Notes under the pieces: generated by a model
What the model saw: only the letters and a program-made list of their open reading frames with translations
Told to the model about the DNA's origin: nothing
Databases searched by the model: none
DNA from: Shigella phage vB_SboS_Gloob
Sequence record: OL615011
DNA length: 64,000 bases
Strand: one strand, 5' to 3'
Position numbers and translations under genes: made by a program
Part shown: positions 47,900-56,263 of the stretch, piece by piece
Layout of the letters: every line of letters starts with the position of its first letter
Position numbering within the stretch: position 1 is the first letter of the stretch

Positions 47900-48226
47900 T
47901 TATTTGCGCAGGGCAACCACGAGTTCAGCGAGTTCACCCATGGTCGGGTCATCGCCTTTACTACCCAGCCAACCGTCGTCGATTTCGACCTGAAACTCTT
48001 CTTCGAGGTCCATTACAATTTCGATAGCGTCCAGTTCATCACCGCCGAGATCCTTCTTGGCGCGGAGGCCTGCAAACTTGTCCAACGCATCGTCTGTGGC
48101 AACTTCACCGTCAATCATTTTCTTGACGTTTGGGTATTTCACCTCGTCTGCATCTAAGTTCAGATTGTCAGTGGCGTACTGAGCCAGATGACGCATGACT
48201 TCAACATATGTTGGTTTACTGCTCAT
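47900..48226 (-). CDS. acyl-carrier-protein-like small acidic protein lacking the phosphopantetheine Ser
   Basis: LGGDELDAIEIVMDLEEEF resembles ACP helix II (DLGADSLDxVELVMALEEEF) but has Glu where the Ser should be. Confidence 0.45.
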   Translation of the reverse strand: MSSKPTYVEVMRHLAQYATDNLNLDADEVKYPNVKKMIDGEVATDDALDKFAGLRAKKDLGGDELDAIEIVMDLEEEFQVEIDDGWLGSKGDDPTMGELAELVVALRK

Positions 48227-48268: not shown

Positions 48269-50512
48269 TTAGATTTTGATCTCTTTCTCTGCCAGTTCGG
48301 CAGTGACCTTGTACTTCACACCATCCACTTCAACTTCCATGGTGGACTCTTCCAGGTCGAGGTCGGTGAACCAGCCGTGGCCAGCAACGATACCATAAAC
48401 CACTTTAGACAGCGTCTTGTTCAGGGCGCGGACTTCGGTGATGGCCGCCTTGGCAGCAGCGTCGATCCAGTTTTCGATCAGCTGTTTCTGTACGGCTTCA
48501 GGCACGGCAGTGATCGCAGGAGACTTCACGAATGCTTCGTATTCCTTCAGAGCATTGGCGATGAACAAGTCACCCGCATTGAGTTTCTTGTTCTCGGCAA
48601 TCTTCTTCTGTACTGCCGCGATGCTCGGCAGAGAAGACGCTCCAGCGATCTTAACGTTCAGCTCACGGCTCATGTAGACATCCGTGGAGTCCTTCAGTTC
48701 GGTCTTCGGTGAGAAGCCGTAATCACGGATGCCGTAGGAGGACAGGAACTCAGCCGCCTCAGCGCCGTACTGTACTGCCAGGCCTTTGGCGTTGCCTTTG
48801 CCAACCAGTTCATCACGGAAGAACTTCAGCACCTTCTGCTTGCCTTTCAGGGCTTCCAGACGGACATTATCCGCAAAGAACTGAGCAGCACTGATGTTCT
48901 TGACCATGGCGCGGTTGACCAGCGGTACGCTTTCCAGGTTCAGGACAAACACTTCCGGACCACCGAACACATGGACGCCCATCTGGCACAGATTGGTTAC
49001 AACTTCAACATCAGCCCTGAACGGCAGAGTCTTCACGTTGATGATGCCGTCTTTGACGATGGTGTAGTTGCGCCATTGGAAAGTATCCAGTTCTTCAGGC
49101 AGACCGAACTTCTTCTGCACGAACTCCGGAATCGCCACAGTGCCGTGCTGGACAGTGCGTACACTGATATTAGGGCGTTCGGAGTTATAGACCAAATCGC
49201 TGATTGGCACAACACCCAGATCGTTGGTAGGTTCGAACGTCGGGTTCCACTCTTCGTGCTCGGCCAGCTTGAGAGCCAGGGCTTTGCGCTCTTCTTTGGA
49301 CTCGGCGTTCGCGATCTGTTCTGCCAGCTTGTCTTCGGTATCGTCCAGTTTCTGAGCCGTACCGCGACCGATGCTCTTGTAGGAGAACATAGGATGTTTG
49401 GTGGCAACACACACGCCAGCTTCAGCCAGATACGTCAGCACGTCAACGACGGTCGTCGCATCTTCAGCCGGGACCAGGTCATAGTCAATACCGTCAACGC
49501 CGCGCAGCTGGTCATCAACGATGGCCTGGGTCAGATCAACTTTGATGTTGGAGTAGTCCTGCTTGGTGAAGCAGTTGCTGTACTGTTTGATGAAGCGGAC
49601 GTCGCCCGTTTTCTTCAGTGCAGCCCACACCAGGTCTGCGTCCATGATGTGTACGCCGTAGAACGCCAGCACGTATGCCGCCTGGATGTCCGCCAGCGCA
49701 TCAAGTTGGTCGATCATGTTAGGATTGACGACCCACAGCTTCGTGACGCTCTCAGGGATGCTCACGTGGCCAACGGGATGCTCTGCGTCTGCCTGTACCG
49801 CCAGAACAGTTGCTACGCCGTTTTCAACGTAGATGGCATGATCATACAGCAACGGAACATCAACAACCACCTTCGGAACTGAGGACTTCAGCACGGTTTC
49901 CAGCTCGGCCTGATACTCAACCTGACCTTCGGCAAACACGTGAGTCGCACCGGAGCGCTCAGACATCAGAGCCAGCAGTTCGCGGTTACAGTACCAGCCG
50001 TATTCGATGAAAGTGACGTTGTCGAACGCGGAAGGAAGTTTTTCGGCGGTGTCCAGGATCTCATTGGAGCGCCAGCAGTTGTCATAACCATCGGTCATGA
50101 ACGCCAGGTTGTTGACGTAGCCGGGTTTCTTCAGGTCACGCGCAGTATCCATCGCCAGTTTCAATGGCTCAACAAAACCAGTACAGCCGGACGGTTGTAG
50201 GAAGCGGTCGATCAGTTTGTTCAGCTCGCTCAGGTCAGATGCTGCACTAACCTGACGGCCAGCGAACACAGTACCAAAGTCGCCACGGGATGAGAAATAC
50301 AGAACACTCACAGTGTCTTCCGGTTTCACCAGAGAAGGCAGGTTCTCCTTCAGATGCTTACGGACTTCAGGGAGCGCCCGGTACATTGAACCGGAAATGT
50401 CTACAACGATTACATGGTTGGACGGAGCAGCAGTCGCAACCACATTCTTAAATTCTAATGATTCAATCATTGTTCTCTTCGCCTTTTGCGTAAGGGTTAA
50501 GTTCAGACTCAT
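48269..50512 (-). CDS. von Willebrand factor A (vWA) domain protein with MIDAS motif
   Basis: 747 aa; N-terminal VVVDISGSM (DxSxS MIDAS); large C-terminal region of unknown function. Confidence 0.6.
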   Translation of the reverse strand: MSLNLTLTQKAKRTMIESLEFKNVVATAAPSNHVIVVDISGSMYRALPEVRKHLKENLPSLVKPEDTVSVLYFSSRGDFGTVFAGRQVSAASDLSELNKLIDRFLQPSGCTGFVEPLKLAMDTARDLKKPGYVNNLAFMTDGYDNCWRSNEILDTAEKLPSAFDNVTFIEYGWYCNRELLALMSERSGATHVFAEGQVEYQAELETVLKSSVPKVVVDVPLLYDHAIYVENGVATVLAVQADAEHPVGHVSIPESVTKLWVVNPNMIDQLDALADIQAAYVLAFYGVHIMDADLVWAALKKTGDVRFIKQYSNCFTKQDYSNIKVDLTQAIVDDQLRGVDGIDYDLVPAEDATTVVDVLTYLAEAGVCVATKHPMFSYKSIGRGTAQKLDDTEDKLAEQIANAESKEERKALALKLAEHEEWNPTFEPTNDLGVVPISDLVYNSERPNISVRTVQHGTVAIPEFVQKKFGLPEELDTFQWRNYTIVKDGIINVKTLPFRADVEVVTNLCQMGVHVFGGPEVFVLNLESVPLVNRAMVKNISAAQFFADNVRLEALKGKQKVLKFFRDELVGKGNAKGLAVQYGAEAAEFLSSYGIRDYGFSPKTELKDSTDVYMSRELNVKIAGASSLPSIAAVQKKIAENKKLNAGDLFIANALKEYEAFVKSPAITAVPEAVQKQLIENWIDAAAKAAITEVRALNKTLSKVVYGIVAGHGWFTDLDLEESTMEVEVDGVKYKVTAELAEKEIKI

Positions 50513-50678
50513 CAGCGGCTTCGATGCGCGCCTTTACAGAGTCCAGCATATTGTTGATAAACTCACGAGACTGCTCCAGCTGAGCCAAGAGCACATCCTT
50601 TGGAGCATAGTTCTGAATGCAAGCCGGAATACTTTCAGACGTCGCCTTCAGGTCGGTAAAACATTCTTTCAGTACCAT
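50463..50678 (-). CDS. hypothetical protein
   Basis: 71 aa ORF. Confidence 0.35.
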   Translation of the reverse strand: MVLKECFTDLKATSESIPACIQNYAPKDVLLAQLEQSREFINNMLDSVKARIEAADESELNPYAKGEENND

Positions 50679-50744
50679 TTGATCTCACTTAACAGAGACG
50701 ACGCCCTGTTGGATTTAATAGCGGTCTTCACAGACATCAGGTTT

Positions 50745-50772
50745 ACCTCAAAACAGGGGAGTCTCCTCCCCT
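50745..50772 (-). terminator. terminator after NAMPT-like gene
   Basis: AGGGGAG-GAGA-CTCCCCT followed by GTTTTGAGG on minus strand. Confidence 0.5.
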
Positions 50773-50779
50773 TCGGTTA

Positions 50780-52444
50780 TCAGATTTGTGATGCCAATTC
50801 TGCCACCAGAGGAGCAGCACGAACACGCGCATCTTCCAGAGTCTGGGTGTTGAAGAACTTGCCGTCACGATACACCAGCTGGTGCTGGTTGTCGGCGTCT
50901 TGCACCTGATCAAAGGTGATACCGTCAACCAACACTAGTTTACCCTGAGAGTCTTTAATGACTTTAAGGAAACCACGCGCAGACTTTTTAGTCCCGCCTT
51001 TGTCGGTCTTCGGCTCTTTGAAGATCTCACGGAATTCGCCGTTCACTTTACCAGCCGTTGCTTTCACTGCCGTGCCAGTACTGTCACGGGTGTTCATCTG
51101 GTAGGTGTAGGAACCGATACCGAACACCACGTTGATGGAAGCAAAGTTCCGGCCAGCCAGACGACCAAAGATCTGGTCTTCACGTGCCAGGGTGATGGAG
51201 TCGCCGTAAATCAGACCGATGTGTTCGTCCAACAGGAAGTGACCAGTTTCGGTCTGGGTCCCGCCAAAGATCTCCCACAGGCGCTGGATAGAGCCGACCG
51301 CTTCTGAACGACTGATGATATTGCGGTCATCTGCCATCAGAGAGTTGATCGTGCCTTCGCCTGTAATCAGGTGATAGGTGTTCGTCTCTTCGATGTGAAT
51401 GACTTCGGTGCTGCTAGACACGCCGCTGATGTTCAGCATAGCGCGGTCTTTGAACCCCTCAATGCGGTAGCCGCCGACGATATGAACTGGGTCGCCCGAG
51501 TCAGGGCGGATCACGACTTTGCCGTTGCGTGCCATGATAATATCTTTCAGGCGCGGCAGATAGTCGTCGATGACCTGCCAGTAATCCCACGCATCAGACA
51601 CGATGCTGACGATGCCATCAGGATACACGTCCTGCACCAGGCGGCGGAAGGTTTCGAATTCACCATCCTTCGTACCCATACACATCACGGCGTGTTCGGT
51701 AGCCGCAACAGAACCAGCAACGACATAGTCTTCGTCGATGTCTGCGCCATAATACTCTTCTACGAAGTCCAGGGCAGGGTTGGTATCGGTGCCTTTGAAG
51801 AACACCAGATGACCGGAACCGGAAGACGCCGCGTCATGCCACCCACTCATACCACGGAAGGAGAAGTCGTGGCCTTGGTAGTCGATGAACCAATGGTCCG
51901 GCGACACGCCTGTAGCGAGGGCAGCTTTCACCATCAGTGCCTTGTAATGCAGAGCGATGGTGGCGTTCGTCATCGGCTTCCAGATCTCAGAGCTGAACAC
52001 AGTCTCCAGATAGTTGGTCAGCCAGTAGAACTCCGGCAGGGTGTTGAACATCACATACACCGGAACGCCATATGGGCACATGGTGCCTTCAGGCAGAGCA
52101 CGGACTTCGATAGGCAGGTAGCCGAGGTCATGCAGGGCTTCAATATGCTCTGTGCCGACGCGGCCTGGACCCAGGACTTTGTTCATGCGACGGGCATACT
52201 TCTTCAACACCTTGGCCTTTGGGCGCTGGAAGAATGCTTCGTCAAACAGTTCGTGGAACCAGGTCATGAAGCCCTGGATGCCCCAGACCACCACGCCGTT
52301 CTTCGGCAGGTGAGAGTTGAACAGTTTGTTGGAGCGCGGAGTTCCGTTGGAGAACACCAGCTCGCTGCCTTCAGGGAACTGATAGATGTGCCCTGATTTG
52401 TAGAAGTCGATTGCATGGATTGGATCTAAGTGGCGCATGCTCAT
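50780..52444 (-). CDS. nadV: nicotinamide phosphoribosyltransferase family protein (NAMPT/NadV or Namat)
   Basis: 554 aa; motifs FKGTDT, VAGSVAATEHA, RPDSGDP. Confidence 0.8.
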   Translation of the reverse strand: MSMRHLDPIHAIDFYKSGHIYQFPEGSELVFSNGTPRSNKLFNSHLPKNGVVVWGIQGFMTWFHELFDEAFFQRPKAKVLKKYARRMNKVLGPGRVGTEHIEALHDLGYLPIEVRALPEGTMCPYGVPVYVMFNTLPEFYWLTNYLETVFSSEIWKPMTNATIALHYKALMVKAALATGVSPDHWFIDYQGHDFSFRGMSGWHDAASSGSGHLVFFKGTDTNPALDFVEEYYGADIDEDYVVAGSVAATEHAVMCMGTKDGEFETFRRLVQDVYPDGIVSIVSDAWDYWQVIDDYLPRLKDIIMARNGKVVIRPDSGDPVHIVGGYRIEGFKDRAMLNISGVSSSTEVIHIEETNTYHLITGEGTINSLMADDRNIISRSEAVGSIQRLWEIFGGTQTETGHFLLDEHIGLIYGDSITLAREDQIFGRLAGRNFASINVVFGIGSYTYQMNTRDSTGTAVKATAGKVNGEFREIFKEPKTDKGGTKKSARGFLKVIKDSQGKLVLVDGITFDQVQDADNQHQLVYRDGKFFNTQTLEDARVRAAPLVAELASQI

Positions 52445-53295
52445 TTTACACGTCCTGTATTTTCAGTTTTGAAAGGAAGGCCGTCGGTGGTGATATTCTC
52501 CCACCAGACAGTGTCGGCATACACAGCATCATAGATCCCGTCGAAAACAGAGAGACCTTTGCTGAAGATGCCATGGGTGACGAAGAGCGTCATGTGCTTA
52601 GGCTCGTGCTTCTGAAGCTCTTTACCCAGCTCAACAAACGTGCGCCCGCCATCGCAGATATCATCAACCACCACCAGATAGCGGTCTTTGATCAGTTCAG
52701 GGTTTGTAATGCTCACCCCAATGATCTCACCAGTCTTGGTGTCACGGTTCTTGTGGCCGTAGACAACAGGAACACCATCCAACGACAGGCTGAGGGCTTC
52801 GGTCTTCTTCGCCGCGCCGCCGTCAGGGGCTACTAGCACAGCGTTGTTCCCACGGATGAACCAGCCCAGATACTGCCGCACGATGTAATCTTGCGGGACA
52901 ACATGGACGTTGTTGATCAGAGAAGACACGACATGGCTGTGAGGGTCTTTGATCGCCACGCGGTCAAAGTTCATGCTATTGATGAACTCAGCCGCCCACT
53001 TCACGGACAGAGGCTCGCCGAAGTCGCAATGGCGGTCCTGGCGAGCATACGGGAAGTAAGGGATATACGCATGGAAGGTCGTCAGACGGTCCACGTTACC
53101 CAGGCCGCGCACGGCGTTTACCAGAAGCGCCAGCTCAATGAAGTCGGCTGATGATTTGATGTGGGCATCAATCACAACCGTCTGAATCTTACCGACAGGA
53201 ATACCAGCCTTTTGGATCTTGATATGTTCCTCACCACCTGGGAAGGTGAAGTGTTTGTAGAACACATCTTGGTCGTTCAATTTCAAACGAAACAT
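52441..53295 (-). CDS. ribose-phosphate pyrophosphokinase (Prs) family protein, candidate ADPR-PP synthetase
   Basis: 284 aa; Prs hallmark IPYFPYARQDR and PRPP-binding loop VVVDDICDGGRT; overlaps NAMPT-like gene. Confidence 0.75.
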   Translation of the reverse strand: MFRLKLNDQDVFYKHFTFPGGEEHIKIQKAGIPVGKIQTVVIDAHIKSSADFIELALLVNAVRGLGNVDRLTTFHAYIPYFPYARQDRHCDFGEPLSVKWAAEFINSMNFDRVAIKDPHSHVVSSLINNVHVVPQDYIVRQYLGWFIRGNNAVLVAPDGGAAKKTEALSLSLDGVPVVYGHKNRDTKTGEIIGVSITNPELIKDRYLVVVDDICDGGRTFVELGKELQKHEPKHMTLFVTHGIFSKGLSVFDGIYDAVYADTVWWENITTDGLPFKTENTGRVK

Positions 53296-53401
53296 AATGT
53301 AGCCTCATGGTGTATTGTACAGCCGTATTATACTGTGATGCACAAATTGAAACACCCAGCAAATATACTGGGCGTCATTGATATTGAAGGAGTTTACTGA
53401 T

Positions 53402-53770
53402 TCAGGTTTTGGATTGTTCACATACCTCGGCCACCTTGCGACACATGTCGATATCGAACAAGCCAATATGACACTCACGCTTCTTTATCCCCAGCTTATG
53501 CGCCAGCCAACTGTAAGCGTCGCTCCTGCTCCTCTCTCCGCTTTTCCACAATGGGTCAAACGATCTGCTTCTCGGCACGGAGAGCGGCATTCGCCATCCT
53601 TCCCAGAGGTTGTCTGCCGTCGCCATGGGCATGGCAACCGACACGAGCGTCACATGGAGTGCATACCCAGAACTTCAGATTGCGGAGGTCAGGGCGATGA
53701 GGGTGGAGGACGTCACCACCGATGAATTCGGCTGGGAGGCCGCAGTAATCACAGATGACAGGTTTCATAT
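53402..53770 (-). pseudogene. DUF3268-like zinc-ribbon protein split by a +1 frameshift
   Basis: N-terminal ORF (CDYCG...CTPCDARVGCH...PLGRMANAALRAEKQIV stop) and C-terminal ORF (RSRSFDPLWKSGERSRSDAYSWLAHKLGIKKRECHIGLFDIDMC) together form one domain of about 120 aa; frame change near 53570-53590. Confidence 0.4.
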
Positions 53771-53774
53771 TCTT

Positions 53775-53806
53775 TGTCCAAAAGAAACCCCGCACATGGC
53801 GGGGTT
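53775..53806 (-). terminator. rho-independent terminator
   Basis: AACCCCGC-CATGT-GCGGGGTT followed by TCTTTTGG on minus strand. Confidence 0.6.
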
Positions 53807-54244: not shown

Positions 54245-56263
54245 TTAGAAAACAACTTTCACAGTGCGGTTGAAAGAGCCGCTCACCTTCACGAACACGT
54301 GGTTGCGTTGGGTGGTAGAGAAGCCCAGACCGGACAGCTGCTCAGTGCTTGGCTGTACTTTAATCTTACCGCCCAACATTTCAAAAACCTTGCGGTGTTT
54401 ATCAAGTTCCGGCTTCAGATACTCGTTATAGAAGCCACGAGTGCCGACAGGGTTAGCACAACCTTCCAGAATGAAGAACACGTGCTTGTTGCCTGTCTGT
54501 TCGCCATCCCAATGGTTTGGTGAGTTCAGAACCAGCTGTACCTTCTGGAAGACAGCGGTCTTGATACCCCAGATTTCCTGGGAGCGAGCATCGTCCTTCA
54601 GGGTAGAACGGATGTCTACCACTTGTCCAGCGCGGACATCAATCACAACAGCCAGAGTGCGATCTTTGTGCTTCAGGCCAGGATGCGAAAAACGCTTGGT
54701 CTGGCCTTTGTATTCAACTTCGATTTCGAAGCCCATATCACAGGTTTCACGCTGGCTGAAGTTAGTGACATAGAACTCGTACAGACCATCACGCAGCTTG
54801 CGTTCATCGCTGAAGAAGATGTTCTCCACCGGGCGGCGGTTGGGGTCAATACCGTCCATACCGTTCATGTCGATATCCAGGGTTGCGCCAGTTGCCGAAC
54901 GACGGTTGTGATAATACACGTGGTTGTGAAGAGGATCGTTCAGGCTCAGATCCAGGTCATCGTTGTTATGCCACGCCAGGGACACACGGAGGAAACCGTC
55001 AACGTTGCCGCCTGCCGTCTTCACGCGCTCTTTGATGGAGTCGGCCACTTCACCGTTGTATGACCAGCTGAAGCCGTTGTTCCACTTGAACAGGTTAGGA
55101 GCACCTGCCGTAGCCGGAGCGATCAGGGACATCAGGTTGCCAGTGTGAGAGTTTTCAACCAGCACTTCCAGGGAATGCGCCTTTGGCAACACGTTGGTCA
55201 GGAAGTCGTCGATGGTGATCTCTTCAACCTTGTCCAGGGACTTGGTCGGAGTCTTCACTTCAGACGCCAGCTGAGCAAACGGGTCCATCTTCTTCTGTGC
55301 TGCCAGGTCGGCAAACAGAACGTTGTTGATGGTCAGATCGTCATACACGGCATAACGGCGACCCAGTGAATCAGTCAGACCCAGCGCTTCGACTTCTTTC
55401 TGCGCGTTTTCAATCATGGACTTCGTGACCAGCGCGGTTGGGCGCTTGTAGTTCGTCGGAGCGACTTTGGCTTCAAAGGACTTCACGGCGGTTTCCAGAT
55501 CCCGACCTTCATTGAGGTCTACCAACAGAGAGCCAATCACGGTATTGCGGATGCCGTGAGGGGTGTGTCCGTTTGCACGGTAGCCAGTACGCCAAGCCCA
55601 CAGAGCGCGTTTCTCTTCTGCAGTTTGTTCGTACAGGGTCTTGCTCGTCACGAACGCCTGCACAGCAGCTTTGTGCTCTTCACCACGATACAGAGAATTC
55701 TGATCAATCAGTTCCAGAACGATTTCGGCCGATTCCAGAGACAGTTCACGCAGGCCGCGCTCAAACACTTCAATCGCCTGGCGGATTTCACCCTTCTTAG
55801 AAGCGATGGCATCAGCCCGCAGAACATAGCTGGGCAGCAGGTCGGTGTGGAAGTGGTTGTAGGTGCGGACATTACCGTCTTTCATTTCGTGATTCGACTC
55901 AACGCCGACTTTCTTGGTATCGTTGAAGTACACGTCGACGATTGCGTGTTGCTTGACATACGCAGACAGCGCCGCAGCGACAACGTCGTATTCGTTACCC
56001 AGCTGAATGTTATCCCAGATAGAGATCACGTTCAGGTCGGCGTCGATGGTCACCACACCGCCGATGTTACGGATGAATTGTTTACAGCAGGTGCAGTCGT
56101 GCTCGGTGCGCTCACGGTAGAGCGGGTTGGTGCCAGCAGGGAAAGAGTTCAGATACAGATCCCACAGAGCATCTTTATCGATGTTGGTCATGAACAGACC
56201 AGTTGCTGACATGGCCAGCACATTATTGTTTACGGCTACTGCGAAGGGCTTAAATTCTGACAT
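54245..56263 (-). CDS. large hypothetical protein (672 aa)
   Basis: Long uninterrupted ORF; Cys cluster HDCTCCKQF; no recognised catalytic motif. Confidence 0.55.
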   Translation of the reverse strand: MSEFKPFAVAVNNNVLAMSATGLFMTNIDKDALWDLYLNSFPAGTNPLYRERTEHDCTCCKQFIRNIGGVVTIDADLNVISIWDNIQLGNEYDVVAAALSAYVKQHAIVDVYFNDTKKVGVESNHEMKDGNVRTYNHFHTDLLPSYVLRADAIASKKGEIRQAIEVFERGLRELSLESAEIVLELIDQNSLYRGEEHKAAVQAFVTSKTLYEQTAEEKRALWAWRTGYRANGHTPHGIRNTVIGSLLVDLNEGRDLETAVKSFEAKVAPTNYKRPTALVTKSMIENAQKEVEALGLTDSLGRRYAVYDDLTINNVLFADLAAQKKMDPFAQLASEVKTPTKSLDKVEEITIDDFLTNVLPKAHSLEVLVENSHTGNLMSLIAPATAGAPNLFKWNNGFSWSYNGEVADSIKERVKTAGGNVDGFLRVSLAWHNNDDLDLSLNDPLHNHVYYHNRRSATGATLDIDMNGMDGIDPNRRPVENIFFSDERKLRDGLYEFYVTNFSQRETCDMGFEIEVEYKGQTKRFSHPGLKHKDRTLAVVIDVRAGQVVDIRSTLKDDARSQEIWGIKTAVFQKVQLVLNSPNHWDGEQTGNKHVFFILEGCANPVGTRGFYNEYLKPELDKHRKVFEMLGGKIKVQPSTEQLSGLGFSTTQRNHVFVKVSGSFNRTVKVVF

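Follow-up and report, generated by a model that had tools for sequence, protein, structure and literature searches.

We analyzed a 64,000-nucleotide stretch of the Shigella phage vB_SboS_Gloob (record OL615011; "the window" below means this whole stretch) and focused on two overlapping genes, adps and namat, which very probably form a two-gene NAD+ reconstitution pathway 1 (NARP1) operon of an Agtrevirus-type Ackermannviridae phage, with NARP1 chemistry and role (probability roughly 0.86). Both genes lie on the minus strand, as do the other window features described below. The upstream member, adps (52441..53295), codes for a 284-aa protein of the ribose-phosphate pyrophosphokinase (Prs) family and putative ADP-ribose (ADPR) pyrophosphate synthetase, and the downstream member, namat (50780..52444), for a 554-aa NAMPT-family protein and putative nicotinamide ADPR-transferase. 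The two open reading frames were found exactly at the positions given in the initial annotation and share the 4 nt of an ATGA stop/start overlap (52441..52444), through which their translation is probably coupled. The four motifs quoted there were also present, FKGTDT (residue 216) and RPDSGDP (residue 313) in Namat, and IPYFPYARQDR (residue 78) and VVVDDICDGGRT (residue 208) in Adps. Profile matches far beyond chance bear out the family assignments: the 554-aa protein matched Pfam NAPRTase (E 1.8e-31), NCBIfam NF006629 (470 bits), and PHROG 448 (E 7e-193), and the 284-aa protein matched Pfam Pribosyltran and Pribosyltran_N, and PHROG 619 (E 5e-91). Compared with relatives, dN/dS was 0.015-0.07 for adps and 0.02-0.05 for namat, and both genes are thus under strong purifying selection.

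Phage pairs of Prs-like and Nampt-like genes were described in 2024 as NARP1 (Osterman et al., bioRxiv 10.1101/2024.02.11.579819). In that study, purified Adps of phage SPbetaL1 produced ADPR-pyrophosphate (ADPR-PP) from ADP-ribose and ATP and formed no Prs-type product, the K162A mutation in this enzyme abolished NAD+ reconstitution in vitro, and Namat joined ADPR-PP and nicotinamide into NAD+, favouring ADPR-PP over phosphoribosyl pyrophosphate (PRPP). Moreover, phage Bas63 required the pair against the SIR2-HerA defence, even in a pncC nadR double-deletion host (Osterman et al., 10.1101/2024.02.11.579819). NARP1 activity or rescue has been demonstrated only for the homologues of SPbetaL1, Bas63, Fado, DyoEdafos, and P. 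foliorum, and Namat crystal structures (9W5X and 9W5W) were reported in a structural paper of 2026 (PMC12774641). By homology with the SPbetaL1 and Bas63 systems, we infer the following enzymatic activities and anti-defence phenotype for the window copy. When a host NADase defence (SIR2-HerA, DSR1/2, type I Thoeris, SEFIR, and similar systems) cuts NAD+ into ADP-ribose and nicotinamide, Adps would transfer pyrophosphate from ATP onto the free ribose of ADP-ribose, yielding ADPR-PP, and Namat would then swap the pyrophosphate of ADPR-PP for nicotinamide and form NAD+ directly. This route would require neither a nicotinamide mononucleotide (NMN) intermediate nor an NMN adenylyltransferase (NMNAT).

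The NARP1 reading, which the initial annotation had preferred, is strengthened by the clade splits of both proteins, by the missing NMNAT, and by near-identical orthologues that have already been catalogued. NARP1 is recognized by a Namat gene near adps (within 10 genes), and in the window namat follows adps directly, with the 4-nt overlap. Table S1 of Osterman et al. lists Klebsiella phage 0507-KN2-1 (first row) and the Salmonella phages P46FS4 and SKML-39 with the entry "Namat within 10 genes: Yes", and their Namats are "Adps-associated" in Table S2. The proteins of these three phages are 98-99.6% identical to the window proteins (the likeness of the 0507-KN2-1 Adps was judged by eye). In addition, a 2024 review of the Ackermannviridae reports that NAMPT and RPPK content differs between Agtrevirus phages and refers to Osterman et al. 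for the reason (PMC11721090). The window pair is therefore a known system and an already catalogued orthologue, and its value as a discovery is low because the published tables already hold nearly the same proteins from other Ackermannviridae.

The Prs-like protein groups with Adps and not with cellular Prs

Pairwise comparison of the 284-aa protein gave 37% identity with Bas63 Adps (E 3e-41), 33% with SPbetaL1 Adps (E 9e-28), and 27% with E. coli Prs (E 3e-19). It scored under every curated NCBIfam Prs cut-off, with 106.5 versus 113 for TIGR01251 and 47-94 versus 296-536 for the equivalog models (94 bits against a cut-off of 296 in one example). Its alignment with Prs shows no counterpart of the first beta-alpha unit or of the C-terminal segment of Prs, and the protein has DPHS instead of DLHAxQIQGFF. 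The K-x-R-[DN]-x-x-T-G loop is conserved in the alignment of Adps proteins, and the lysine of this loop is K182 in the window protein (52750..52752), which occupies the alignment column of SPbetaL1 Adps K162. Among the top 120 Adps homologues listed by a whole-database search, all were 249-306 aa long, and most were encoded on phage-sized contigs and a few in bacterial genomes.

The Adps of phages constitute a clade of their own that excludes cellular Prs, and in 97% of cases a Namat gene lies within 10 genes (Osterman et al., 10.1101/2024.02.11.579819). The phylogenetic placement that the initial annotation had called for was carried out with sequences taken from Osterman Table S1 and from E. 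coli K-12, using Kimura-corrected neighbour-joining and 500 bootstraps. The tree contained 23 taxa, with 6 canonical Prs and 17 Adps-like sequences (3 experimentally characterised and 13 catalogued phage Adps and 1 bacterial Adps-like protein). A bootstrap value of 100% supports the division between canonical Prs and Adps-like proteins. The window protein, which groups with the characterised Adps, was nested among the Adps of Gram-negative myoviruses. This places the Prs-like protein in the Adps clade, separate from cellular Prs. A canonical class I Prs was rejected for the 284-aa protein on its sub-cut-off scores, truncated N- and C-termini, DPHS variant, and clade placement.

The NAMPT-like protein groups with Adps-associated Namat

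The best solved structures for the 554-aa protein are those of SPbetaL1 Namat (9W5X/9W5W, E 3.2e-135, 455 bits), followed in third place by PDB entry 9KE8 (E 1.9e-105). Mouse NAMPT matched with E 7.7e-50 and 173 bits, and the mouse and human enzymes both gave values of about E 1e-49. Identity to Bas63 Namat was 43% by BLASTP (range 43-47%). A bootstrapped, Kimura-corrected neighbour-joining tree was built from partial sequences of 10 taxa, and in this tree the two Nmnat-associated phage Nampts and mouse NAMPT were split from the other 7 sequences with 100% bootstrap support. These 7 were the window protein, 5 characterised or catalogued Adps-associated Namats, and PDB 9KE8. The outcome of the proposed phylogenetic check is thus the same as for its partner: the protein groups with characterised Namat, apart from canonical Nampt, and the tree assigns it to the Adps-associated Namat clade. 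Within this clade the window Namat pairs with Bas63 Namat (84% bootstrap). As a side observation, the PDB entry 9KE8/9KEO, which is titled "nicotinamide phosphoribosyltransferase", groups with the Namats of SPbetaL1 and Staphylococcus phage G1 (96% bootstrap), and its SCH motif (see below) is the non-aromatic GAQTYQRNTRD.

The catalytic core defined for Namat is conserved. In the alignments, F194, R197, D220, H251, R313, and D315 of the window protein correspond to F189, R192, D215, the catalytic His, R306, and D308 of SPbetaL1 Namat, respectively. The core proper extends from His251 (in ATEHA) to Arg313 and Asp315 (in IRPDSGDP) at 51506..51694, and Phe194/Arg197 and Asp220 are encoded upstream of it at 51784-51865. 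Downstream of the core, after RPDSGDPVHIVGG, the window protein carries a 58-aa insertion (residues 326-383, 51296..51469), which was delimited by a two-stretch HMMER alignment that skips these residues. The insertion is absent from SPbetaL1 Namat and from animal NAMPT. The Namats of Bas63, which is functional in vivo, and of Acinetobacter phage HB01 have longer insertions at the same site, and these show weak sequence likeness to that of the window protein.

No NMN adenylyltransferase was found in the window or in a close relative

The initial annotation had reported that no NMNAT or Nudix gene was visible in the window, and both a six-frame motif scan and phmmer agree with this. None of the 212 annotated genes of P46FS4, the 97%-identical relative, has an NMN adenylyltransferase, NadR, Nudix, Macro, or RyR product. 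Because many of these genes are annotated as "hypothetical", 1,925 stop-to-stop segments, taken from all six reading frames of both the window and the complete P46FS4 sequence, were also scanned with HxGH, ISSTxxR, and Nudix-box patterns. Neither an HxGH motif nor a Nudix box was present in the six frames of the two sequences, and a single isolated ISSTxxR-like match in a P46FS4 segment had no accompanying HxGH. A phmmer search of the same frames with E. coli NadR and NadD gave a best value of only E = 2.4.

These results bear on the classical salvage route that the initial annotation had offered as the alternative. According to this explanation, the upstream gene encodes a true Prs that makes PRPP, the downstream gene encodes a NadV/Nampt that makes NMN from it, and NAD+ is then completed by host NadR, by PncC and NadD, or by an unrecognised phage NMNAT. 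Database names and the Pfam and NCBIfam matches, which read Prs and NAPRTase/Nampt, point in this direction, as do the facts that SPbetaL1 Namat still converts PRPP to NMN in vitro and that the clamp of the window Namat is partly non-canonical. Nevertheless, both proteins fall in the Adps and Namat clades with 100% support, the Prs-like protein stays under all curated Prs cut-offs, and the SPbetaL1 Adps used ADPR and yielded no Prs-type product in vitro. Bas63 overcame SIR2-HerA in a host lacking both pncC and nadR, which also speaks against a dependence on host salvage. Finally, PRPP-using phage Nampts that have no Adps partner form their own clade, in which Nmnat co-occurs in 94% (NARP2). 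With no NMNAT in the window or in P46FS4, the salvage and NARP2 alternatives are unsupported, and we regard the classical salvage route, whose clades are the wrong ones for this pair, as extremely improbable. NARP2 itself, whose Nmnat is often fused to Nudix, was rejected on the lack of an Nmnat in the window and in P46FS4 and on the position of Namat outside the Nmnat-associated clade.

Two extended forms of NARP1 were also considered and rejected. For NARP1-AP, the two nearest genes to either side were run through hmmscan against Pfam, which gave VWA, DUF3268, or nothing, and no Macro domain (PF14519, PF01661, or PF20016); the published NARP1-AP search for Macro domains used HHpred, which is more sensitive than the hmmscan used here. 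For RyDEP-linked NARP1, the RyR domain (PF02026) was sought by motif and by phmmer, with the RyR-domain protein gp40 of SilasIsHot as query; both gave noise only across the 64-kb window, and a RyR gene is thus absent from it.

The selectivity clamp of Namat is a conserved variant

The selectivity of Namat for its donor has been ascribed to an adenine selectivity clamp formed by a variable loop, SCL, and by the SCH motif GS-X-phi-X-phi-X-phi-TRD, and the catalytic core described above was defined in the same work (PMC12774641). In the window protein, alignments locate the SCH motif GSYTYQMNTRD at residues 444-454 (51083..51115) and the SCL equivalent TPRSNKLFNSHLPKNG at residues 35-50 (52295..52342). 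The former fits the Namat-type pattern, whereas Nampt has GGxLLQKxTRD at this place. Position 3 of SCH is the aromatic Tyr446 and position 7 is Met450, which is non-aromatic. The SCL segment closely resembles that of Bas63, TPRSDKWFNSPLAIDG, and has Lys40 at position 3, where SPbetaL1 has Arg40; at position 4 it has Leu41, followed by Phe42, where Bas63 has a Trp proposed to stack. The SCL residue expected to stack on adenine is an Arg at position 3 or else the one next to a Lys or Tyr. P46FS4, SilasIsHot, and the Taipeivirus FKP10 all have the same two residues, Leu41 and Met450, and the alignment thus identifies them as a conserved clamp variant. Because these residues depart at two of the three stacking positions, we only infer that the window Namat prefers ADPR-PP.

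This departure could mean that the enzyme has relaxed specificity, with Leu41, Met450, and the 58-aa insertion allowing it to use PRPP and ADPR-PP comparably, or to use another ADPR derivative, so that the pair would work partly as NARP1 and partly in NMN formation. In favour of this, the variant, which departs from SPbetaL1 and Bas63 at two of the three stacking residues, is constant among Agtrevirus, SilasIsHot, and Taipeivirus, and double clamp mutants of SPbetaL1 Namat lose 2.4- to 16.6-fold of the ADPR-PP-driven activity and keep NMN synthesis (PMC12774641). However, Adps-associated Namats naturally have different residues at SCH position 7 (Tyr, Phe, His, Lys, or Arg), and R40A/Y396K, the mutant pair nearest to the window combination, is the mildest, with a 2.4-fold loss (PMC12774641). 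Leu and Met can still pack on adenine, and Phe42 follows Leu41. Furthermore, the partner of the window protein is clearly an Adps, and no NMNAT is encoded. Relaxed specificity is therefore a most unlikely explanation next to the NARP1 reading.

The pair occupies a variable slot in Ackermannviridae genomes

At the nucleotide level, the 2.5-kb region shares 97% identity with Salmonella phage P46FS4 (Ackermannviridae, Aglimvirinae, Agtrevirus) and 90-97% with several dozen phages of the family that infect Salmonella, Shigella, Escherichia, Enterobacter, and Klebsiella. Throughout these relatives the pair is annotated as "ribose-phosphate pyrophosphokinase" and "nicotinamide phosphoribosyltransferase". 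It lies in a slot between a 123-aa gene and a vWA gene, the content of which varies. In the Salmonella phage Maynard (Kuttervirus), the same flanking genes enclose a DUF3268 gene and a 290-aa gp49_66/RyR gene without adps-namat, and homology to the window ends at 50474 and restarts at 53414 (gap 50475-53413; Maynard comparison piece L004, 4796-6000). SilasIsHot has the DUF3268 gene, the RyR gene, adps, and namat, and P46FS4 has the DUF3268 gene, a gp49_66 gene with a differing C-terminus and no detectable RyR domain, adps, and namat. In the window, the slot consists of a DUF3268 gene with an 11-nt frameshifting deletion, adps, and namat, and the gp49_66/RyR gene is entirely missing. The Klebsiella phage FKP10 (Taipeivirus) has adps and namat followed by a gp49_66-like gene downstream. 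This FKP10 gene (L012:654-1403) encodes a 249-aa homologue of P46FS4 ORF49 that is labelled "anti-CRISPR protein", a label that is unconfirmed.

Two relatives contain remnants of the pair. All that is left in the slot of Dickeya phage PP35 (Limestonevirus) is a gene for 110 aa in which Adps residues 1-7 are joined in frame to the ~104 C-terminal residues of Namat (orf108, L011:3501-3833), and in Shigella phage Ag3, an entry of Table S1, Adps 1-222 is fused to Namat ~226-554. Judged by these fusions, PP35 and Ag3 carry two independent decayed NARP1 copies. The internal fusion of Ag3 also accounts for the chimeric PHROG 12872, which matched both window proteins. At the megablast level, the query shares nothing but its DUF3268 part with ~160 further Ackermannviridae records. 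Since Maynard has no adps-namat and these records match DUF3268 only, NARP1 is accessory within the family. Such a distribution would be expected of a counter-defence accessory that pays off only under certain conditions and has been lost more than once, and we propose that the module of the window would likewise act as such a cassette in a variable family slot, lost or deleted in some lineages.

RyR-domain proteins were recently shown to degrade or sequester the cyclic ADP-ribose (cADPR) signals of Thoeris, and in mycobacteriophage DyoEdafos the NARP1 locus contains them and receives ADPR from them. In SilasIsHot and Maynard, the product of the slot gene is 290 aa long, combines Phage_gp49_66 and RyR (PF02026) domains, and belongs to the anti-Thoeris RyDEP family; the RyR match was 39.8 bits for the SilasIsHot gene directly upstream of adps and 41.2 bits for the same slot in the NARP1-less Maynard.

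The same chemistry might serve another purpose, namely as a general metabolic booster for phage replication (ligase, nucleotide metabolism), through ADP-ribose recycling or higher NAD+, in hosts with and without a defence system. The position of the module among DNA-metabolism genes would suit this role; moreover, NARP2 raises NAD+ without a defence system, and bacterial NARP1 homologues of unassigned role exist. Against it, ADPR-PP was detected in Bas63 infection only when a NADase defence was present, which indicates that the substrate is otherwise limiting. The module is also dispensable (absent in Maynard, deleted in PP35, internally deleted in Ag3), as is typical of conditional counter-defence genes, and in relatives it adjoins a RyR-domain gene of the anti-Thoeris RyDEP family. 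We therefore consider a purely metabolic booster quite improbable and retain the counter-defence role of NARP1. A further proposal combines both lines of observation: the Ackermannviridae Namat would be a distinct functional variant, with clamp and insertion altering donor specificity (for instance, towards balanced use of PRPP and ADPR-PP or towards another ADPR derivative), and the slot would be a modular anti-NADase/Thoeris island in which enterobacterial phages gain, lose, and combine RyR (RyDEP-like) genes and NARP1. This combined proposal is unlikely.

Several points weigh against the assignment of the pair to NARP1. Both trees are small neighbour-joining trees (23 and 10 taxa), and that of Namat was built from partial sequences. 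Identity to the characterised enzymes is moderate (33-37% for Adps; 43-47% to Bas63 for Namat), and in the literature searched we found no NARP1 experiment with an Ackermannviridae phage. At two of the three adenine-stacking positions the window Namat has a residue that is neither aromatic nor Arg (Met450 versus Tyr in SPbetaL1 and Bas63; Leu41 versus Trp in Bas63). The motif and phmmer search for NMNAT could overlook a very divergent enzyme. Lastly, a consensus scan called no promoter upstream of adps, where a -35 hexamer is absent.

Transcription unit and neighbouring genes

The pair is located in an early/DNA-metabolism region, between the 123-aa gene and the gene with the vWA domain, which is followed by an acyl-carrier-like gene. 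An intrinsic terminator with an 8-bp stem, 6 G-C pairs, and a T-run was found by consensus scan upstream of the unit, between the 123-aa and DUF3268 genes (53786..53806); it is described as strong and is annotated at the same place in Maynard. The leader of adps (53303..53332) contains a perfect -10-like TATAAT (53332-53327), seen by eye only, and a GAGG ribosome-binding site (53306-53303); as a promoter this part is weak. The ~92 nt preceding the adps ATG are conserved in SilasIsHot. Beginning 9 nt past the namat stop, folding identified a terminator-like hairpin (GGGGAG-GAGA-CTCCCC followed by UGUUUU; 50750..50771) that the consensus pattern scan had missed (-16.5 kcal/mol, z = -3.0, 0 of 200 shuffles folding as well). 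The genes adps and namat are probably co-transcribed within a unit that hairpin terminators delimit at both ends.

The gene directly upstream of adps, which is not part of NARP1, encodes a DUF3268 zinc-finger protein (53402..53768), the two halves of which match Pfam in two different frames. Compared with SilasIsHot and Maynard, it carries the frameshifting 11-nt deletion (AGGAAGCTCAT) with its junction at 53567/53566, and the P46FS4 gene is longer as well; the frameshift reflects either a pseudogene or a sequencing error. This gene adjoins adps because the ~0.9-kb gp49_66/RyR gene that relatives have between the two (counterparts in comparison pieces L005:4128-5000, L004 [Maynard]:5111-5983, and L001:22627-23421) is missing in the window phage, at ~53388-53414.

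On the other side of the pair, a 747-aa protein with an N-terminal vWA domain (48269-50512) is conserved across the family, as is a 672-aa protein without a Pfam match that is encoded further upstream (54245-56263). Beyond the vWA gene, at 47900-48226, lies a gene for a 108-aa "acyl carrier protein" (Pfam PP-binding, 26 bits) that contains LGGDELDAIEIVMDLEEEF. When this segment is set against LGADSLDTVELVMALEEEF, which we take to be the corresponding one of the E. coli acyl carrier protein, the phosphopantetheine-attachment Ser seems to be a Glu, and the 108-aa protein may not be a functional carrier.

Implications

If the pair works as NARP1, the phage should withstand the NAD+-depleting defences SIR2-HerA, DSR, type I Thoeris, and SEFIR. 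It should not withstand aRES-type systems, because the Adpp phosphatase is lacking, and it has no RyR-domain cADPR binder. Such differences in defence range are relevant when Ackermannviridae phages are chosen for the biocontrol of Salmonella, E. coli, or Klebsiella. For specialists, the additions made here are modest and comprise the presence/absence pattern within the family, the conserved clamp variant, and the modular association with RyR genes in enterobacterial phages.

Comparison with known systems

The closest systems are the NARP1 pairs of P46FS4, SKML-39, and 0507-KN2-1, which have the same two genes in the same order and with the same ATGA-type overlap as the window. Between P46FS4 and the window, Adps is 97.9%, Namat 99.6%, and the DNA 97% identical. 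Only the surroundings differ: the window has no gp49_66-family gene, which in P46FS4 and SilasIsHot is located between the DUF3268 gene and adps, and its DUF3268 gene has the 11-nt deletion.

Among the systems tested in vivo, that of Bas63 (Escherichia phage JohannRWettstein, Felixounavirus; genes 79-80) also has adps followed by an adjacent namat. The Namats of Bas63 and the window have a common insertion site after RPDSGDPVHIVxGY and a Lys-type SCL (TPRSNKLF... in the window, TPRSDKWF... in Bas63). They differ in that the Bas63 insertion is ~30 aa longer, SCL position 4 is Trp, SCH position 7 is Tyr, and the genes are 45 nt apart and do not overlap. The NARP1 of SPbetaL1 (genes 190-191) shares the catalytic residues and the Namat-type SCH with the window, and its Adps K162 corresponds to K182. 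In contrast, it belongs to a sub-clade of Gram-positive phages, stacks adenine with Arg40, lacks the 58-aa insertion, and has the PRPP-loop DDLSSFGGT in Adps where the window protein has DDICDGGRT.

The adps/namat core is also common to NARP1-AP, with its Macro-domain phosphatase Adpp, and to the RyDEP-containing NARP1 of DyoEdafos, but the window pair has no adjoining Macro-domain gene (among its immediate neighbours) or RyR-domain gene (in the 64 kb). NARP2 of Vibrio phage KVP40, which consists of Nampt and a bifunctional Nmnat, likewise uses a phage NAMPT-family enzyme for NAD+ restoration. Its Nampt, however, prefers PRPP, belongs to a separate clade, and requires the phage Nmnat. Finally, cellular Prs and NAMPT/NadV have the same folds and the same chemistry, in which the pyrophosphoryl group of ATP is transferred and nicotinamide then displaces pyrophosphate, and they are distinguished from the window pair by the clade separation at 100% bootstrap and by the Namat-type clamp motif of the window NAMPT-like protein.

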